Positions 2,031 to 51,704 of a DNA stretch of 64,000 nucleotides are shown piece by piece (the first letter of the stretch is position 1; each line of letters opens with the position of its first letter). Below the pieces are notes generated by a model. That model had not been told where the DNA came from. It saw only the letters and a list, made by a program, of their open reading frames with translations, and ran no database searches. Source of the DNA: Escherichia coli (GTDB lineage: Bacteria; Pseudomonadota; Gammaproteobacteria; Enterobacterales; Enterobacteriaceae); the NCBI RefSeq assembly GCF_044324875.1, contig NZ_CP172185.1, one strand, 5' to 3'. Position numbers and translations under genes: made by a program.

Positions 2031-3257
2031 ATGAATTACGAATTACTGACCACTGAAAATGCCCCGGTAAAAATGTGGACCAAAGGCGTGCCGGTAGAGG
2101 CCGATGCGCGTCAGCAACTTATTAATACGGCGAAGATGCCGTTTATTTTCAAACATATTGCGGTAATGCCTGATGTACACCTGGGTAAAGGTTCCACCAT
2201 TGGTAGCGTGATCCCAACCAAAGGGGCGATTATTCCGGCGGCGGTGGGCGTGGATATCGGTTGTGGAATGAACGCGCTGCGTACCGCGTTAACGGCGGCA
2301 GACCTGCCGGAAAACCTGGCGGAGCTGCGTCAGGCAATTGAAACTGCCGTGCCGCACGGGCGTACTACCGGGCGTTGTAAACGTGATAAAGGCGCATGGG
2401 AAAACCCGCCTGTTAACGTCGATGCGAAATGGGCTGAGCTTGAAGCCGGTTATCAGTGGTTAACGCAAAAATATCCCCGTTTCCTTAACACTAACAACTA
2501 TAAACACCTGGGAACGCTGGGAACGGGTAACCACTTTATTGAAATCTGCCTTGATGAGTCGGACCAGGTGTGGATTATGCTGCACTCCGGTTCACGCGGA
2601 ATCGGTAATGCCATCGGAACTTACTTTATCGATCTGGCGCAAAAAGAGATGCAGGAAACGCTTGAAACATTGCCGTCGCGTGATCTGGCGTACTTTATGG
2701 AAGGTACGGAATACTTTGATGATTACCTGAAAGCCGTGGCCTGGGCGCAGCTTTTTGCCAGCCTTAACCGCGATGCGATGATGGAAAACGTGGTAACGGC
2801 GTTGCAGAGCATTACGCAGAAAACGGTCAGACAGCCACAAACGCTGGCGATGGAAGAGATCAACTGTCACCACAACTATGTGCAAAAAGAACAGCACTTT
2901 GGTGAAGAGATCTACGTGACGCGTAAAGGCGCGGTGTCTGCGCGTGCTGGTCAATATGGAATTATTCCCGGTTCGATGGGGGCGAAGAGCTTTATCGTCC
3001 GTGGGCTGGGAAATGAAGAGTCGTTCTGTTCGTGCAGCCACGGTGCCGGGCGGGTTATGAGCCGTACTAAAGCGAAAAAAATGTTCAGCGTGGAAGATCA
3101 AATTCGTGCCACCGCGCATGTGGAATGCCGTAAAGATGCCGAAGTGATCGACGAAATCCCGATGGCGTATAAAGATATTGATGCGGTGATGGCGGCACAA
3201 AGCGATCTGGTGGAAGTTATCTATACCCTGCGTCAGGTGGTGTGCGTAAAAGGATAA
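2031..3257 (+). CDS. rtcB: RNA-splicing ligase RtcB
   Basis: 408-aa ORF recognised as RtcB family; immediately followed by rtcA. Confidence 0.95.
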   Translation: MNYELLTTENAPVKMWTKGVPVEADARQQLINTAKMPFIFKHIAVMPDVHLGKGSTIGSVIPTKGAIIPAAVGVDIGCGMNALRTALTAADLPENLAELRQAIETAVPHGRTTGRCKRDKGAWENPPVNVDAKWAELEAGYQWLTQKYPRFLNTNNYKHLGTLGTGNHFIEICLDESDQVWIMLHSGSRGIGNAIGTYFIDLAQKEMQETLETLPSRDLAYFMEGTEYFDDYLKAVAWAQLFASLNRDAMMENVVTALQSITQKTVRQPQTLAMEEINCHHNYVQKEQHFGEEIYVTRKGAVSARAGQYGIIPGSMGAKSFIVRGLGNEESFCSCSHGAGRVMSRTKAKKMFSVEDQIRATAHVECRKDAEVIDEIPMAYKDIDAVMAAQSDLVEVIYTLRQVVCVKG

Positions 3258-4277
<1,020 letters not shown>

Positions 4278-4290
4278 TATAAAGATGTAA

Positions 4291-4314
4291 GCCGGATCCG
4301 ACGTATTATCCGGC
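4291..4314. terminator. hairpin between convergent rtcA and malT (candidate bidirectional terminator)
   Basis: gccggat-N10-atccggc inverted repeat in the 42-bp gap between two convergent stops. Confidence 0.35.
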
Positions 4315-4319
4315 TAAAC

Positions 4320-7031
<2,712 letters not shown>

Positions 7032-45866: not shown

Positions 45867-46617
45867 GTTTGAAGATATTCGCGGCGTCGCTTTTGATCTC
45901 GATGGTACGCTGGTGGACAGTGCTCCTGGCTTGGCTACCGCAGTAGATATGGCGCTGTATGCGCTGGAGTTGCCCGTCGCAGGTGAAGAACGCGTTATAA
46001 CCTGGATTGGTAACGGCGCAGATGTTCTGATGGAGCGCGCATTGACCTGGGCGCGTCAGGAACGTGCGACTCTGCGTAAAACAATGGGTAAACCGCCCGT
46101 TGATGACGACATTCCGGCAGAAGAACAAGTACGTATTCTGCGTAAACTATTCGATCGCTACTATGGCGAGGTTGCCGAAGAGGGGACGTTTTTGTTCCCG
46201 CACGTTGCCGATACGCTGGGCGCATTGCAGGCTAAAGGCCTGCCGTTGGGCCTGGTCACCAACAAACCGACGCCGTTCGTCGCGCCGCTGCTGGAAGCCT
46301 TAGATATCGCTAAATACTTCAGCGTGGTGATTGGTGGTGATGATGTGCAAAACAAAAAACCGCATCCGGACCCGCTGTTACTGGTGGCTGAGCGGATGGG
46401 AATTGCTCCACAACAGATGCTGTTTGTTGGCGACTCACGCAATGATATTCAGGCAGCAAAAGCGGCAGGTTGCCCATCAGTTGGCTTAACCTACGGATAT
46501 AACTACGGCGAGGCTATCGATCTCAGCCAGCCTGATGTAATTTATCAGTCTATAAATGACCTTCTGCCCGCATTAGGGCTTCCGCATAGCGAAAATCAGG
46601 AATCGAAAAATGACTAA
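45859..46617 (+). CDS. gph: phosphoglycolate phosphatase
   Basis: 252-aa ORF; HAD motif [10 protein letters not shown]; overlaps rpe stop. Confidence 0.95.
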
Positions 46618-47614
46618 GCCCATCGTTTTTAGTGGCGCACAGCCCTCAGGTGAATTGACCATTGGTAACTACATGGGTGCGCTGCGTCAGTGGGTAAACA
46701 TGCAGGATGACTACCATTGCATTTACTGTATCGTTGACCAACACGCGATCACCGTGCGCCAGGATGCACAGAAGCTGCGTAAAGCGACGCTGGATACGCT
46801 GGCCTTGTATCTGGCTTGTGGTATCGATCCTGAGAAAAGCACCATTTTTGTTCAGTCCCACGTACCAGAACATGCGCAGTTAGGCTGGGCACTGAACTGC
46901 TATACCTACTTCGGCGAACTGAGCCGCATGACGCAGTTTAAAGATAAATCTGCGCGTTATGCCGAGAACATCAATGCTGGTCTGTTTGACTATCCGGTGC
47001 TGATGGCAGCGGACATCCTGCTGTATCAAACTAATCTGGTACCGGTGGGTGAAGACCAGAAACAGCACCTGGAACTGAGCCGCGATATCGCCCAGCGTTT
47101 TAACGCGCTGTATGGCGAGATCTTTAAAGTGCCGGAGCCGTTTATTCCGAAATCTGGCGCGCGCGTAATGTCGCTGCTGGAGCCGACCAAAAAGATGTCC
47201 AAGTCTGACGATAACCGCAATAACGTTATCGGCCTGCTGGAAGATCCGAAATCGGTGGTGAAGAAAATCAAACGCGCGGTCACCGACTCCGACGAGCCGC
47301 CGGTAGTTCGCTACGATGTGCAGAACAAAGCGGGCGTTTCCAACCTGCTGGATATCCTTTCTGCGGTAACGGGCCAGAGCATCCCGGAACTGGAAAAACA
47401 GTTCGAAGGCAAGATGTATGGTCATCTGAAAGGCGAAGTGGCTGATGCCGTTTCCGGTATGCTGACTGAATTGCAGGAACGCTATCACCGTTTCCGCAAT
47501 GACGAAGCCTTCCTGCAACAGGTGATGAAAGATGGCGCGGAAAAAGCCAGCGCACACGCTTCCCGTACGCTAAAAGCGGTGTACGAAGCGATTGGTTTTG
47601 TGGCGAAGCCGTAA
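46610..47614 (+). CDS. trpS: tryptophan--tRNA ligase
   Basis: 334-aa ORF; class I aaRS KMSKS motif. Confidence 0.95.
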
Positions 47615-47774: not shown

Positions 47775-48680
47775 ATGCGTCGAACGTTTATCAAAAAAGA
47801 AGGCGTCGTCATCACGACACTGGCCCGTTATTTGTTGGGTGAAAAGTGCGGTAATCGACTGAAAACCATAGATGAGCTGGCAACTGAATGCCGTTCATCC
47901 GTTGGCCTGACGCAGGCCGCGTTGAAAACGCTGGAATCAAGCGGAGCGATACGGATTGAACGCCGTGGGCGCAATGGCAGTTATCTGGTCGAGATGGATA
48001 ACAAAGCATTGCTGACTCATGTGGATATCAACAACGTGGTATGTGCGATGCCCTTGCCCTATACCCGTTTGTACGAAGGCCTGGCGAGCGGATTGAAAGC
48101 CCAGTTCGATGGCATTCCTTTTTACTATGCGCATATGCGCGGCGCGGATATTCGCGTGGAGTGTTTACTTAACGGCGTGTATGACATGGCGGTTGTTTCC
48201 CGACTGGCGGCGGAAAGTTATCTCACGCAAAAAGGCTTATGCCTCGCGCTGGAGTTGGGGCCGCACACCTACGTTGGCGAGCACCAGTTGATTTGCCGTA
48301 AAGGCGAGTCCGCAAACGTGAAGCGCGTGGGGCTGGATAACCGTTCGGCGGATCAGAAAATCATGACCGATGTCTTTTTTGGCGATAGTGATGTGGAACG
48401 TGTCGATCTCTCTTATCACGAGAGTTTACAACGCATTGTTAAAGGCGATGTTGATGCGGTGATCTGGAACGTGGTGGCGGAAAACGAACTGACCATGCTG
48501 GGATTAGAAGCGACGCCGCTCACAGACGATCCGCGATTTTTACAGGCCACCGAAGCCGTGATCCTGACGCGAGTCGATGATTACCCAATGCAACAATTGC
48601 TGCGTGCAGTTGTTGATAAACAGGCCCTGCTTGCCCATCAACAACGAGTGGTCAGTGGGGAACAGGAACCCAGTTATTAA
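47775..48680 (+). CDS. yhfZ: putative HTH transcriptional regulator of the yhf cluster
   Basis: 301-aa ORF recognised as YhfZ. Confidence 0.8.
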   Translation: MRRTFIKKEGVVITTLARYLLGEKCGNRLKTIDELATECRSSVGLTQAALKTLESSGAIRIERRGRNGSYLVEMDNKALLTHVDINNVVCAMPLPYTRLYEGLASGLKAQFDGIPFYYAHMRGADIRVECLLNGVYDMAVVSRLAAESYLTQKGLCLALELGPHTYVGEHQLICRKGESANVKRVGLDNRSADQKIMTDVFFGDSDVERVDLSYHESLQRIVKGDVDAVIWNVVAENELTMLGLEATPLTDDPRFLQATEAVILTRVDDYPMQQLLRAVVDKQALLAHQQRVVSGEQEPSY

Positions 48681-48696: not shown

Positions 48697-48807
48697 ATGG
48701 AAACCAGACTCAACCTGCTTTGCGATGCAGGCGTTATTGATAAGGACATCTGCAAAGGCATGATGCAGGTCGTCAACGTACTGGAAACTGAGTGTCATCT
48801 ACCGGTG
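48697..48807 (+). pseudogene. yhfY: 5' fragment (37 codons) of PRD-domain gene yhfY, interrupted by IS insertion
   Basis: ATG at 48697 with upstream AAAGG; frame METRLNLLCDAGVIDKDICKGMMQVVNVLETECHLPV runs into the IS end. Confidence 0.75.
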
Positions 48808-48880
48808 TGCGTATTCCGCTCTATTCGATCACGGATTGGCATCGAAGTCCGATCAGCGATTCGCATCCATTCGATCAACC
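48808..48880. repeat. IS21-family terminal repeat block (istB-proximal end)
   Basis: Reverse complement of the other end aligns over the tcgatc motif; repeated cgatcacggattggcatcg / cgatcagcgattcgcatcc units. Confidence 0.6.
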
Positions 48881-48906
48881 GGGAACTTAACTTTTTCTAC
48901 CGCTTT

Positions 48907-49662
48907 TTAACGCGTTTTTTCGCTGCTTTCCACTACCGGGGGATTTTTCCTCAGTGACTCTCCCTGAAGGACCACTCGGTGTGAGTTATGTACCAGTCTG
49001 TCCAGGATGGCATCTGCTGTTGTTGGGTTCTCCATCAGACCATGCCATTTATCTACCGGGAACTGGCTTACCACTATCGTGCTGCTTTGTCCGTAACGAT
49101 CCTCTATGAGCTCCAGAAGGTCATTACACTGGGCGTTACTTAACTGTTCCAGCCCCAGATCGTCCAGGATTAGAACCTGTATTTTTTGCAACTGTTTCAG
49201 ATATTTCAGCCAGCTGCCATCAACACGTCCCTGAGCCAGTTGTTCCAGTAATCGCCCGGTTCTACAGTACCGGACGCTGTGTTTCTGTCGACATGCCTGT
49301 TCGCCCAGCGCATTGGCTATCCAGCTCTTGCCACATCCTGTCGGACCGGTTATCAGCAGGTTTTTCCTGTGGGTTATGTAGTGGCCGTTCAGCAGTTCTC
49401 TCATCTGTTCAGCCCGCAGACCTCTTGAGGCCGGATAGCGCAGCCCTTCCGGTGTTGCCTGGTATTTCAGGCCGGCATTTTTTCTCAACCGTGCCACACG
49501 GCTGTTTTCCCTGCTCAGAAGCTCGTCATCAACCAGCAGCGTCAGCCTTTCCTCGAACGACAGTTCGTCGTAGGTCTGAGGCGTTTCCCGCTGCCGTATC
49601 AGGCTCCCGGCCATCGCCGGGAGTTTCAGTTGGGTCAGTTTGTTTAACAGGTTATCACTCAT
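48907..49662 (-). CDS. istB: IS21-family transposition helper ATPase IstB
   Basis: 251-aa frame from MSDNLLNKL with AAGGA RBS; Walker A GPTGCGKSW; start overlaps istA 3' end. Confidence 0.85.
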   Translation of the reverse strand: MSDNLLNKLTQLKLPAMAGSLIRQRETPQTYDELSFEERLTLLVDDELLSRENSRVARLRKNAGLKYQATPEGLRYPASRGLRAEQMRELLNGHYITHRKNLLITGPTGCGKSWIANALGEQACRQKHSVRYCRTGRLLEQLAQGRVDGSWLKYLKQLQKIQVLILDDLGLEQLSNAQCNDLLELIEDRYGQSSTIVVSQFPVDKWHGLMENPTTADAILDRLVHNSHRVVLQGESLRKNPPVVESSEKTR

Positions 49663-49678
49663 ACTGTTGTTCCTTCTG

Positions 49679-51214
49679 TCAGTGGTAGTAGCCCGGACCA
49701 CGCAGGTTTTCATGCTCTGAAGCATATGCCGGATGTTGTTCGCCCTGGCGGGATAATGGAAGCTCCAGGTTCTCCCGATGGTGACGCAGCAGATTGTCGA
49801 TAAAGCGTCTGTCAGGGGCGTTATAGTGCAGGGCAACGTAACAGGCCTTTTCCAGCCGTTCCGGGCCGTATTTTTTCTGAAGTGCCAGCAGCCCCAGAAC
49901 TGCACGATAAGCCAGTTCCGGATGGGGTTTTGCCTTCAGCATGGATTCAACCACCCGGCCTGTGGACGGGCCCGTACGTTTTCCCTGCTCGATCAGGCGT
50001 TCCGGTGTCCATGTCCCGTGCTGCCGGTGGCGCTCTGGCATGTGAAGCGGATTGGTTGTGTGTTTATATTCATGTGTGCTGCGCGGATGTTGCGCCACAC
50101 ACTGCCCCTTGTGCCAGAGCTGTACCACCGACTGCCCCGCCTTCAGTGACAGACGCTGACCGACCAGTTCGTGTGGAACGGAGTACCAGTGACGGGCATA
50201 TTCAACGTGGTAGTCAGGGCCAACCTTCACAGCTTTGTATTCCGTGTATTCATAAGGTGCCAGAGGCAGCGGAGAGAGTGCTGGCGCATCCAGTATGCGG
50301 AAGCGTTCTGCACGGGTTTGATTGCCGTACCCCTTCATTGGCCGGTTATTCATGTCTGTCAGTAACTCCCTAAGGCGCGCATTCAGCGCCCTGAGCGTGT
50401 GGAAGGTTTCATTACGGATGCGGGCAAGAAGCCATCGTTCAACGATGAGGACGCCGTTTTCTGCTTTTGGTTTATCTTTAGGTTTGCGTGGTCGGGCCGG
50501 GATGATAACCGTGCCATAGTGCTCAGCCAGTGCCTGATAACTGTCGTTGATGACAGGCTCATATCGATCGGCCTTTTTCACTGCGCTTCTGAGGTTATCG
50601 GGGATGAGCAGCTTCGGTACGCCGCCCAGGAAGGTCAGGCAACGGCTGTGGGCATTTAACCATGACATCATGTCCTGACCTTCGCACGCTTCAACGTAGG
50701 TATAGTTGGACGCCCCCATTACGGCCACGAAGATTGCCACGCGGCGTATCTCACCGGTGTCCGGATTAATAACAGGAACCGTAGGACCACAGAAGTCGAT
50801 AAAAAGCTTTTCGCCGGCACGATGCTCCTGGCGCATGGAGAGACGTCGCGTTTTTTTCCACTCCCGGTAGCAACGGCAGAAGTGCGAGTATCCCATCGCT
50901 TTGTTACCCGCCTGTGCCTTGTATTCCATCCACAACAGTTGCCGCGTCACACCTGGTTTTCTCATTTCCGTATCGAAGTACAACATGTCAGGCATTACAA
51001 GCTCTGATGCAAAGGTGTCTTTGGGCGGAAAAATGAGTTTCTCCAGCGTGTCATGGGATATATCAGCAGGTAATGGCCATGACAGAGAAGAGGCTTTGAA
51101 GCGGGCAAGAACCTCAAAAACGGTTGAGGCGCTGATGTGTAACGTCAGTCCGATACAACGGTTAGTCAGCTTCTTGTCGAACTTGAGCTGAAGGATCTTA
51201 AAACAGGTTTCCAT
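49679..51214 (-). CDS. istA: IS21-family transposase IstA
   Basis: 511-aa frame from METCFKILQ with AGGAG 5 nt upstream; DDE-integrase region with IstA-like RPRKPKDKPKAENGV motif; longer ORF-track start would lie in the terminal repeats. Confidence 0.8.
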   Translation of the reverse strand: METCFKILQLKFDKKLTNRCIGLTLHISASTVFEVLARFKASSLSWPLPADISHDTLEKLIFPPKDTFASELVMPDMLYFDTEMRKPGVTRQLLWMEYKAQAGNKAMGYSHFCRCYREWKKTRRLSMRQEHRAGEKLFIDFCGPTVPVINPDTGEIRRVAIFVAVMGASNYTYVEACEGQDMMSWLNAHSRCLTFLGGVPKLLIPDNLRSAVKKADRYEPVINDSYQALAEHYGTVIIPARPRKPKDKPKAENGVLIVERWLLARIRNETFHTLRALNARLRELLTDMNNRPMKGYGNQTRAERFRILDAPALSPLPLAPYEYTEYKAVKVGPDYHVEYARHWYSVPHELVGQRLSLKAGQSVVQLWHKGQCVAQHPRSTHEYKHTTNPLHMPERHRQHGTWTPERLIEQGKRTGPSTGRVVESMLKAKPHPELAYRAVLGLLALQKKYGPERLEKACYVALHYNAPDRRFIDNLLRHHRENLELPLSRQGEQHPAYASEHENLRGPGYYH

Positions 51215-51337
51215 AGTGCTCCTGGATTTTCTCTTTCTGGACATTGACGTCTCCACTGGTTTAAACACGGCAATGGAGACTGTGGTGAAAAGAGTTAATT
51301 CCCGGAGTGACTGGCAGGATGCCAATCAATGATCGGA

Positions 51338-51445
51338 AGCATGCCAAATCGTGATCGATTGTGATGCCAAACTGTGATCGGAGATGGATGCCAAATCATG
51401 ATCGATTCGAATGCCAAACTGCGATCGATTCAGATGCCATTTTGC
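51338..51445. repeat. IS21-family terminal repeat block (istA-proximal end) with about 5 iterated ~22-bp units
   Basis: gcatgccaaatcgtgatcgatt / gatgccaaactgtgatcgg / gatgccaaatcatgatcgatt / gaatgccaaactgcgatcgatt / cagatgccattttgc. Confidence 0.7.
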
Positions 51446-51446
51446 A

Positions 51447-51704
51447 CCGGTGCGCAGCGAGCAAGGAATGATGGCGATGACACATATGGCGAGCGCACTG
51501 ATGCGCAGTCGCCGTGGTGAAGAAATAGAGCCGCTGGACGCCGAATTGCTGGCAGAACTGGCGCAATCCAGCCACTGGCAAGCCGTTGTGCAATTGCATC
51601 AGGTATTGTTGAAGGAATTTGCACTGGAAGTTAACTCGTGTGAAGAAGGCTATTTGCTGGCCAACCTTTATGGATTATGGATGGCCGCGAACGAAGAGGC
51701 CTGA
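51447..51704 (+). pseudogene. yhfY: 3' fragment (83 codons) of yhfY separated from its 5' part by the IS
   Basis: Frame RSEQGMMAMTHMASALMRS...WMAANEEA is in phase with the 5' fragment once the IS and one copy of accggtg are removed. Confidence 0.75.

Follow-up and report, generated by a model that had tools for sequence, protein, structure and literature searches.

The terminal inverted repeats (TIRs) of IS21-family elements comprise 23-bp direct repeats, designated L1/L2 and R1/R2 (PMC10122671, PMC11208146). In IS5376, each repeat consists of the boxes CS1 and CS2 and, according to cryo-EM, HTH-2 of the transposase IstA contacts CS1 while HTH-1 contacts CS2 (PMC10122671). Integration by IS5376 needs two complete repeats: a tetramer of IstA synapses the two ends, with the catalytic protomers on R1 and the structural protomers on R2, and IstB then activates the IstA–DNA complex (PMC10122671, PMC11208146). 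The IS5376 oligonucleotides read tip(7)-GCCGAT-N8-CCCCAA-N4-GCCGGT-N8-CCCCAG, and the target duplication of this element is 5 bp (PMC10122671). In both IS21 and IS5376, a −35 element lies in the right TIR and a −10 element in the left TIR; the outward −35 of IS5376 is the right tip TGTCAA, whose reverse complement is TTGACA (PMC10122671).

In structure, IstA is stated to be closely related to MuA and TnsB (PMC10122671). Phage Mu (L1–L3, R1–R3) and Tn7 (TnsB sites) have asymmetric ends with multiple transposase sites that are read by tandem HTH domains, as is probably the case for the element described below. However, these systems belong to other families: the spacing of their sites is irregular instead of following a strict 23-bp tandem register, and they depend on further proteins or an enhancer.

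An ISSso4-type element in yhfY

The window, that is, the whole 64,000-nt stretch of Escherichia coli DNA that was analysed, contains an intact IS21-family element of the ISSso4 type, inserted in yhfY (Table 1). The boundaries of the 2639-bp element were fixed by an empty site and by many independent insertions elsewhere. Its tips read TGCGT... at 48808, with TG first, and ...TTGCA at 51446, with CA last. In strain 7/2, the empty site reads CATCTACCGGTGCGCAGCG and holds one CCGGTG only. Moreover, a construct from which the IS and one CCGGTG had been removed found an end-to-end, one-piece match in 5076 of 5426 complete E. coli genomes. Other copies of the element are flanked by target duplications of 5–7 bp. 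The range for the IS21 family is 4–8 bp.

The IS disrupts yhfY directly behind codon 37. The preliminary description of this DNA had placed the distal end of the element antisense to yhfZ and trpS; the orientation was right, but the nearest neighbour is actually the 5′ fragment of yhfY. On the other side, yhfX (51788–52951) and yhfW (52952–54178), the rest of the yhfZYXW/php run, lie downstream and are apparently intact by ORF length.

The element encodes an IS21-type DDE transposase, IstA, and, directly downstream after a 16-nt gap, the AAA+ ATPase IstB. IstA matched NF033546 (IS21 family transposase) with 284.7 bits over residues 9–317, the cutoff being 160, and contains the Pfam domains rve and Mu-transpos_C_2. 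It matched IstA of IS5376 (PDB 8B4H/8Q4D) with an E-value of about 1e-13 (6e-14) in an alignment that covers residues 75–373 only. IstB matched NF038214 (IS21 helper ATPase; 257.8 bits, cutoff 200) and PF01695, IstB_IS21 (E = 2.4e-60). The TG/CA termini and the short target duplication, a 6-bp CCGGTG checked against the empty site, are likewise those of the IS21 family.

The ISSso4 assignment was made via the NCBI/RefSeq 'ISSso4 family' labels, with a copy from S. sonnei as comparator. This copy, carried on pInv and annotated as ISSso4 family, is 96.3% identical to the window IS over its full length. E. coli copies, such as that of H18, are 100% identical over the full length and bear the same RefSeq label. 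ISSso4 is probably the same element type. The copies compared have the same layout, five left and two right units as defined below, and the window IS would differ only in insertion site.

Of 5426 complete E. coli genomes, 2354 carried the 2.64-kb element, in up to 23 places per genome; the search located 3460 places overall. Among the best 25 of 2557 records with a match, no copy had both flanks matching those of the window. For strain Z1323CEC0006 (H1), the right flank seemed to match, but through an artefact of alignment; direct comparison showed the flanks to be unrelated, and this copy is therefore a different insertion. The element is a catalogued IS and its terminal repeats, a well-known and already described hallmark of the IS21 family, are not a new feature. 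The value of the result is mostly one of annotation: it sets the exact limits of the IS (48808–51446), the target duplication and the disrupted gene.

Table 1. Coordinates of the IS, its terminal repeats and genes, and neighbouring features in the window.
Feature	Position	Strand	Remarks
Complete IS21-family IS, ISSso4 type	48808–51446	−	2639 bp, 5′-TG...CA-3′
Target-site duplication CCGGTG, left copy	48802–48807	.	6 bp; empty-site comparison
Target-site duplication CCGGTG, right copy	51447–51452	.	6 bp; empty-site comparison
Left terminal array	51319–51446	−	tip TGCAAA, six A boxes and five B boxes
Tip A box ATGGCAT	51434–51440	−	positions 7–13 from left tip
Left unit TCGATCGCAGTTTGGCAT (B-N4-A)	51411–51428	−	26.8 bits
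Left unit TCGATCATGATTTGGCAT	51388–51405	−	27.8 bits; one of two units absent from the 3-unit allele
Left unit CCGATCACAGTTTGGCAT	51364–51381	−	28.2 bits; one of two units absent from the 3-unit allele
Left unit TCGATCACGATTTGGCAT	51341–51358	−	28.3 bits
Innermost full left unit CCGATCATTGATTGGCAT	51319–51336	−	25.1 bits; beyond the range of the preliminary description
Inner block, left partner, GAAAAGAGTTAATTCCCGG on + strand	51287–51305	−	directly inside the left repeats
Right terminal array	48808–48877	+	tip TGCGT, three A boxes (first degenerate, ATTCCGC) and three B boxes
Distal unit TCGATCACGGATTGGCAT, inverted relative to left array	48825–48842	+	26.8 bits, matrix from left end only
Distal unit CCGATCAGCGATTCGCAT, degenerate A box	48849–48866	+	15.1 bits; second-best non-training match in window
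Third distal B box TCGATCA	48871–48877	+	makes a third unit if read A-B from the tip, as in IS5376
Inner inverted-repeat block CCGGGAACTTAACTTTTTC	48879–48897	+	directly inside the distal repeats; inverted-repeat search
GATC sites, left	51331, 51353, 51376, 51400, 51423		
GATC sites, right	48827, 48851, 48873		
istA	49679–51214	−	511-aa DDE transposase; NCBIfam NF033546, Pfam and PDB matches
istB	48907–49662	−	251-aa AAA+ helper ATPase; 16 nt downstream of istA
trpS	46610–47614	+	upstream of yhfY
yhfZ	47775–48680	+	upstream of yhfY
yhfY 5′ fragment, codons 1–37	48697–48807	+	empty-site yhfY annotation (L001) mapped onto window
yhfY 3′ fragment	51447–51704	+	first 6 nt are the duplicated CCGGTG
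3-unit allele copies (L003, L017/L018, L019, L021)	3001–5592 of each record		L018 copy internally deleted, 3001–5276

Two-box repeat units at the IS ends

The units of the left (istA-proximal) end are bipartite, of the form TCGATCr-N4-TTGGCAT, and recur with a period of 22–24 bp. There are five full units and, at the tip, a sixth half unit of the TTGGCAT type. Counted from the tip inward, the A boxes (TTGGCAT) start at 7, 30, 53, 77, 100 and 122 and the B boxes (yCGATCr) at 19, 42, 66, 89 and 111; the unit steps are 23, 23, 24, 23 and 22 bp. About five tandem copies had previously been described between 51338 and 51445. The count of five stands, but this range holds four full units and a truncated tip copy; a fifth full unit lies at 51319–51336, so that the array extends from 51319 to 51446. 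Tandem Repeats Finder reported a 23-bp period with 4.3 copies and a stronger, two-unit period of 47 bp with 81% matches. Within 51317–51427, the block made up of units 2 and 3 is 84% identical to that made up of units 4 and 5, with the same 47-bp periodicity.

The distal end contains two full inverted units together with two halves, one a box at the tip and the other a half unit further in, in agreement with the two or three degenerate inverted copies noted there before. From the right tip inward, the A boxes start at 6 (the degenerate ATTCCGC), 29 and 53 and the B boxes at 18, 42 and 64, with unit steps of 23–24 and 22–24 bp. Considering both ends, the offset from the start of a B box to that of the following A box is 11 bp in seven of seven cases, while the A-to-B offset is 11–13 bp. 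As the sequence alone is compatible with either register, we give both unit counts: five left and two right in the B-N4-A register, and 5.5 left and three right in the A-N5-B register of IS5376. Each end thus has at least two direct repeats with a spacing of ~23 bp, as do the TIRs of the IS21 family.

The similarity of the two ends greatly exceeded that of shuffled sequence. Alignment of the ends, which had been set beforehand as a test, gave a local score of 46, compared with 16.9 ± 2.6 for shuffles (maximum 28 in 1000); 1301 other segments of the window scored ≤26 in the same test. The consensus ATGCCAAAYYGTGATCGATT, with ≤3 mismatches allowed, had five matches in the window against 0.01 expected. 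All five fell at the two IS ends, and none of 100 shuffles reached this number. Finally, when a matrix was built from the five left units only, nothing else in 128 kb scored as high as the two right units, which had 26.8 and 15.1 bits; the site after them had 11.7.

We also compared the boxes between elements. This test is independent of the way in which the boxes were found, because they were defined by repetition within the element. The comparison covered four 5-unit copies, found in E. coli, S. sonnei, Edwardsiella and Enterobacter and belonging to elements that are 84–100% identical. Variable positions numbered 2 of 72 in the boxes and 11 of 50 in the spacers (Fisher p = 0.0016), and 22 of 104 over the remaining leader. 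The B boxes were variable at 0 of 30 positions across diverged copies.

Similar ends were found in six relatives whose IstA proteins are 37–47% identical: ISEc12, ISPpu7, ISAs29, and elements from an IncP plasmid, Cereibacter and Sulfurospirillum. IS408 and ISFK1 were also fetched, and their ends lie outside the comparison. All six relatives carry bipartite units with 22–24-bp steps, approximately 4–5 at the left end and 2–4 at the right. Like the window IS, these long-IstA relatives encode an IstA of ~510 aa, have a 22–24-bp register and possess more left than right units; the tip in most is TGC(A/G)(T/G) or TGTAA. The first box lies at position 6–8 from the TGC../TGT.. tip in five of the six and at 18–19 in ISEc12. 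By contrast, the boxes are specific to each element, examples being ATTCCACG/TCCGGACA and ATTCCGG/GTGAACA. Box sequences that vary with the protein while the geometry remains fixed are as expected for cognate transposase sites.

The tip-CS1-N8-CS2-N4-CS1-N8-CS2 layout of IS5376 parallels the tip(5–6)-A-N5-B-N4-A-N5-B layout of the window IS, including the constant 4-bp junction. Both elements have TG..CA tips, 23-bp direct bipartite repeats and a first box 6–8 nt from the tip; the left tip A box occupies the position of CS1 in the IS5376 TIRs and of the first box in the relatives. IstA of IS5376 comprises an N-terminal pair of HTH domains, a DDE domain and a beta-barrel, an architecture that the window IstA probably shares, and IstB is an AAA+ helper in both elements. 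The two systems nevertheless differ in several respects. IS5376 has two repeats per end, as opposed to 5–6 left and 2–3 right in the window IS, and its boxes, GCCGAT/CCCCAA, are unrelated to TTGGCAT/TCGATC and separated by N8 rather than the closer N5. The solved IS5376 IstA chain comprises 406 residues, whereas the window IstA has 511 and extends further at both termini. The target duplication is 5 bp in IS5376 and 6–7 bp in the window element type, and the right tip that yields an outward TTGACA in IS5376 is replaced by TGCGTA, which does not.

An AlphaFold model of IstA residues 1–150, based on a 10-sequence alignment, contained two three-helix bundles (H3-41 and H77-122) connected by a linker, with a mean pLDDT of 79. 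In a fold search with this N-terminal model, no match was significant: the best was the Pax6 paired domain (E = 0.077), and 8B4H ranked 12th (E = 0.77). The top matches were other tandem-HTH proteins, namely the Pax6 paired domain, TnsB, IstA 8B4H and CENP-B, all with E > 0.07. A Pfam scan of residues 1–130 returned HTH_23 only (E = 0.16), and the first HTH did not rise above noise.

The identification of the repeats as multiple putative IstA-binding sites is well supported by homology and by comparison among copies and relatives. Homology contributes to this support because the repeats match L1/L2 and R1/R2, to which the HTH domains of IS5376 IstA bind. The preliminary description had held multi-repeat termini to be typical of the IS21 family, and the matches to curated IS21 models, the TG..CA tips, the 6-bp duplication and the 23-bp register are all consistent with that view. 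The array may look odd, but IS21-family elements normally end in this way. In our judgment, it is highly likely that an intact ISSso4-type IS has these repeats as its composite terminal inverted repeats and that they serve as IstA sites, the extra left ones being accessory.

From the sequence and its parallels with IS5376, we infer IstA binding, the placement of its protomers and the role of the surplus units as follows. Each 22–24-bp unit would offer IstA two boxes, A (TTGGCAT) and B (TCGATCr), which start 11–13 bp apart, or about one helical turn. The two tip-proximal units of each end would seat the catalytic and structural protomers, and the IstA tetramer would synapse the ends and present the terminal CA for strand transfer after activation by IstB. 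The invariant 4-bp gap between B and A may correspond to the constant 4-bp R1–R2 junction of IS5376; its rigidity would fit equally well with one protomer per B-N4-A. The three further istA-side units would be accessory IstA sites, dispensable for movement, that most likely raise the local occupancy of IstA and/or let it damp its own expression. Such a role appears the most plausible because of the position of the surplus units in the 232-nt leader that precedes istA. Autoregulation by these units is a conjecture, since the istA promoter was not located.

Surplus units in the istA leader

The accessory nature of the surplus units is indicated by a natural allele. This 2592-bp allele carries a 47-bp deletion by which two units are missing and three left units remain. 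It occurs at four different sites, on plasmids and chromosomes, with a separate 6–7-bp duplication at each (GCCAGA, GTTATT, ATCTAAG and CCAGAC), and istA and istB are intact in three of the copies from these four sites. The 3-unit alleles are 97–99% identical to the window copy and differ among themselves only in spacers. Since an allele with three units has moved to at least four sites, the surplus left units are dispensable: three left units suffice for transposition, and the others are accessory. The 47-bp periodicity of the array suggests that the 5-unit array and the 3-unit allele are interconverted by unequal recombination between units.

Natural left-end alleles with three and five sites, both of them mobile, provide a ready-made test of the role of the extra sites, a question left open by the IS5376 and Tn7 structural papers. 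The structural work covered two sites per end, while the long-IstA branch has ~4–6 left and 2–4 right sites in a strict 23-bp register. The new points are modest ones: the 23-bp arrays of the long-IstA branch, the mobile 3-unit allele, an inner block described below and the presence of a GATC in each B box.

One possibility, which we put forward tentatively and hold to be less probable than not, is that the surplus left units are mainly operators, at which bound IstA represses or occludes the istAB promoter. All five or six left units fall inside the 232-nt leader, which runs from the tip to the istA start codon, and left units outnumber right ones in the window IS and in the six relatives. 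The mobility of the 3-unit allele further indicates that units 2 and 3 are unnecessary for movement, and the authors of the IS5376 study proposed that IstA binding masks the promoter elements of the TIR (PMC10122671). However, the array and the adjoining sequence yielded no sigma-70-like promoter. Consensus and relaxed scans detected no istA promoter inside the array, the best candidate being a weak 8/12 site at 51255, TGGAGA-18-GAAAAT, ~60 nt inside the last unit. The A box hexamer TTGGCA matches the sigma-70 −35 at five of six positions and points inward at both ends (51319–51440 and 48836–48866); there is no −10 at 16–18 nt from it, because that position is taken, 17 nt on, by the TTGGCA of the next A box, a sequence unlike a −10. 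An operator function of the surplus units is compatible with the role in synapsis that we assign to the two outer units.

Transposition of IS10, IS50 and IS903 is controlled by Dam. In the window IS, there is one GATC in every B box, five at the left end and three at the right, against a window average of ~4.7 per kb. The units could therefore be Dam-sensitive, such that IstA binding would depend on methylation and transposition would be coupled to the passage of the replication fork. The invariance of the B boxes in diverged copies agrees with this idea. So does the distribution of GATC among the relatives: the units of the enterobacterial ISEc12, although unrelated in sequence (GAGATC), also hold GATC, and the boxes of the Pseudomonas, Cereibacter and Sulfurospirillum relatives are without it. 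Nevertheless, the GATC may merely belong to the recognition sequence, the Aeromonas element and the E. coli IncP element lack GATC in their boxes despite belonging to Dam-bearing lineages, and Dam control of IS21-family elements was not found in the literature examined. Overall, we consider Dam sensitivity unlikely.

A combination of the two ideas, in which the surplus istA-side sites and their GATC would constitute a dosage- and methylation-sensitive switch that sets istAB expression and the timing of transposition, is distinctly unlikely. If it were true, the 3-unit and 5-unit alleles would be differently tuned versions. With the 5-unit element as query, genomes with up to 23 copies were found; the 3-unit allele was mostly single-copy among the records listed.

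The preliminary description had further suggested that the distal end can carry an outward −35 element. If so, hybrid or junction promoters might drive antisense transcription into yhfY, yhfZ and trpS. The split arrangement of −35 and −10 in IS21 and IS5376 is a precedent (PMC10122671), and the distal end of the window IS does face yhfY (5′), yhfZ and trpS in antisense. However, the distal tip is TGCGTA, not TGTCAA, and its reverse complement, TACGCA, matches TTGACA at three of six positions only; moreover, the TTGGCA hexamers of the units face inward. A consensus scan yielded no promoter-like site on the minus strand between 48500 and 51700, a relaxed scan (≥8/12) yielded no site with its −35 inside the distal IS end, and no promoter of ≥8/12 was found at modelled right–left junctions with 0–6-bp spacers. 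The split-promoter arrangement, which is not family-defining, is thus not supported by the sequence, and we did not retain the suggestion of an outward −35, which we regard as very improbable.

Very improbable, too, is a neutral origin of the array by slippage or unequal recombination, for example by a 47-bp two-unit duplication, with only the outermost sequence functional and the inner copies decaying: the 47-bp period does outscore the 23-bp period, units 2–3 and 4–5 do form closely similar blocks and close relatives do vary in unit number (5, 4 and 3), but the boxes of all five units are kept while spacers change in copies down to 84% identity, inner units are as well conserved as outer ones, and distant relatives keep ~4–5 left units of different sequence, which argues for maintenance and against decay. 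Passive duplication as the sole explanation of the 47-bp period was accordingly rejected on box conservation.

Inner blocks and other features

A further pair of inverted repeats, with the consensus CCGGGAAyTTAACTyTTTTC, lies inside the iterated units at both ends. No part of the leader is better conserved than this inner block, in which TCCGGGAATTAAC.CTTT does not vary among all seven aligned left ends, one of them from a relative with 72% identity. Its possible roles include that of a host-factor site or of an additional contact for IstA or IstB. Judged by eye, and with ISEc12 left out, each of the relatives has a private inner block common to both of its ends.

Several relatives differ from the window IS in that their left end also contains their unit in inverted orientation. 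One or two such copies, following the direct units, were seen ~100–150 nt from the left tip in ISEc12 (L009), ISAs29 (L011), the IncP element (L012) and the Sulfurospirillum element (L016); an example from ISEc12 is GTTATTCAGTGATCTC.

Lastly, residues 6–70 of IstA (window ~51005–51199, minus strand) matched the NCBIfam model for the IS66-like accessory protein TnpA with E = 9e-15, which is below the cutoff of that model. This match hints at a DNA-binding module common to IS21-family IstA and IS66-family TnpA.
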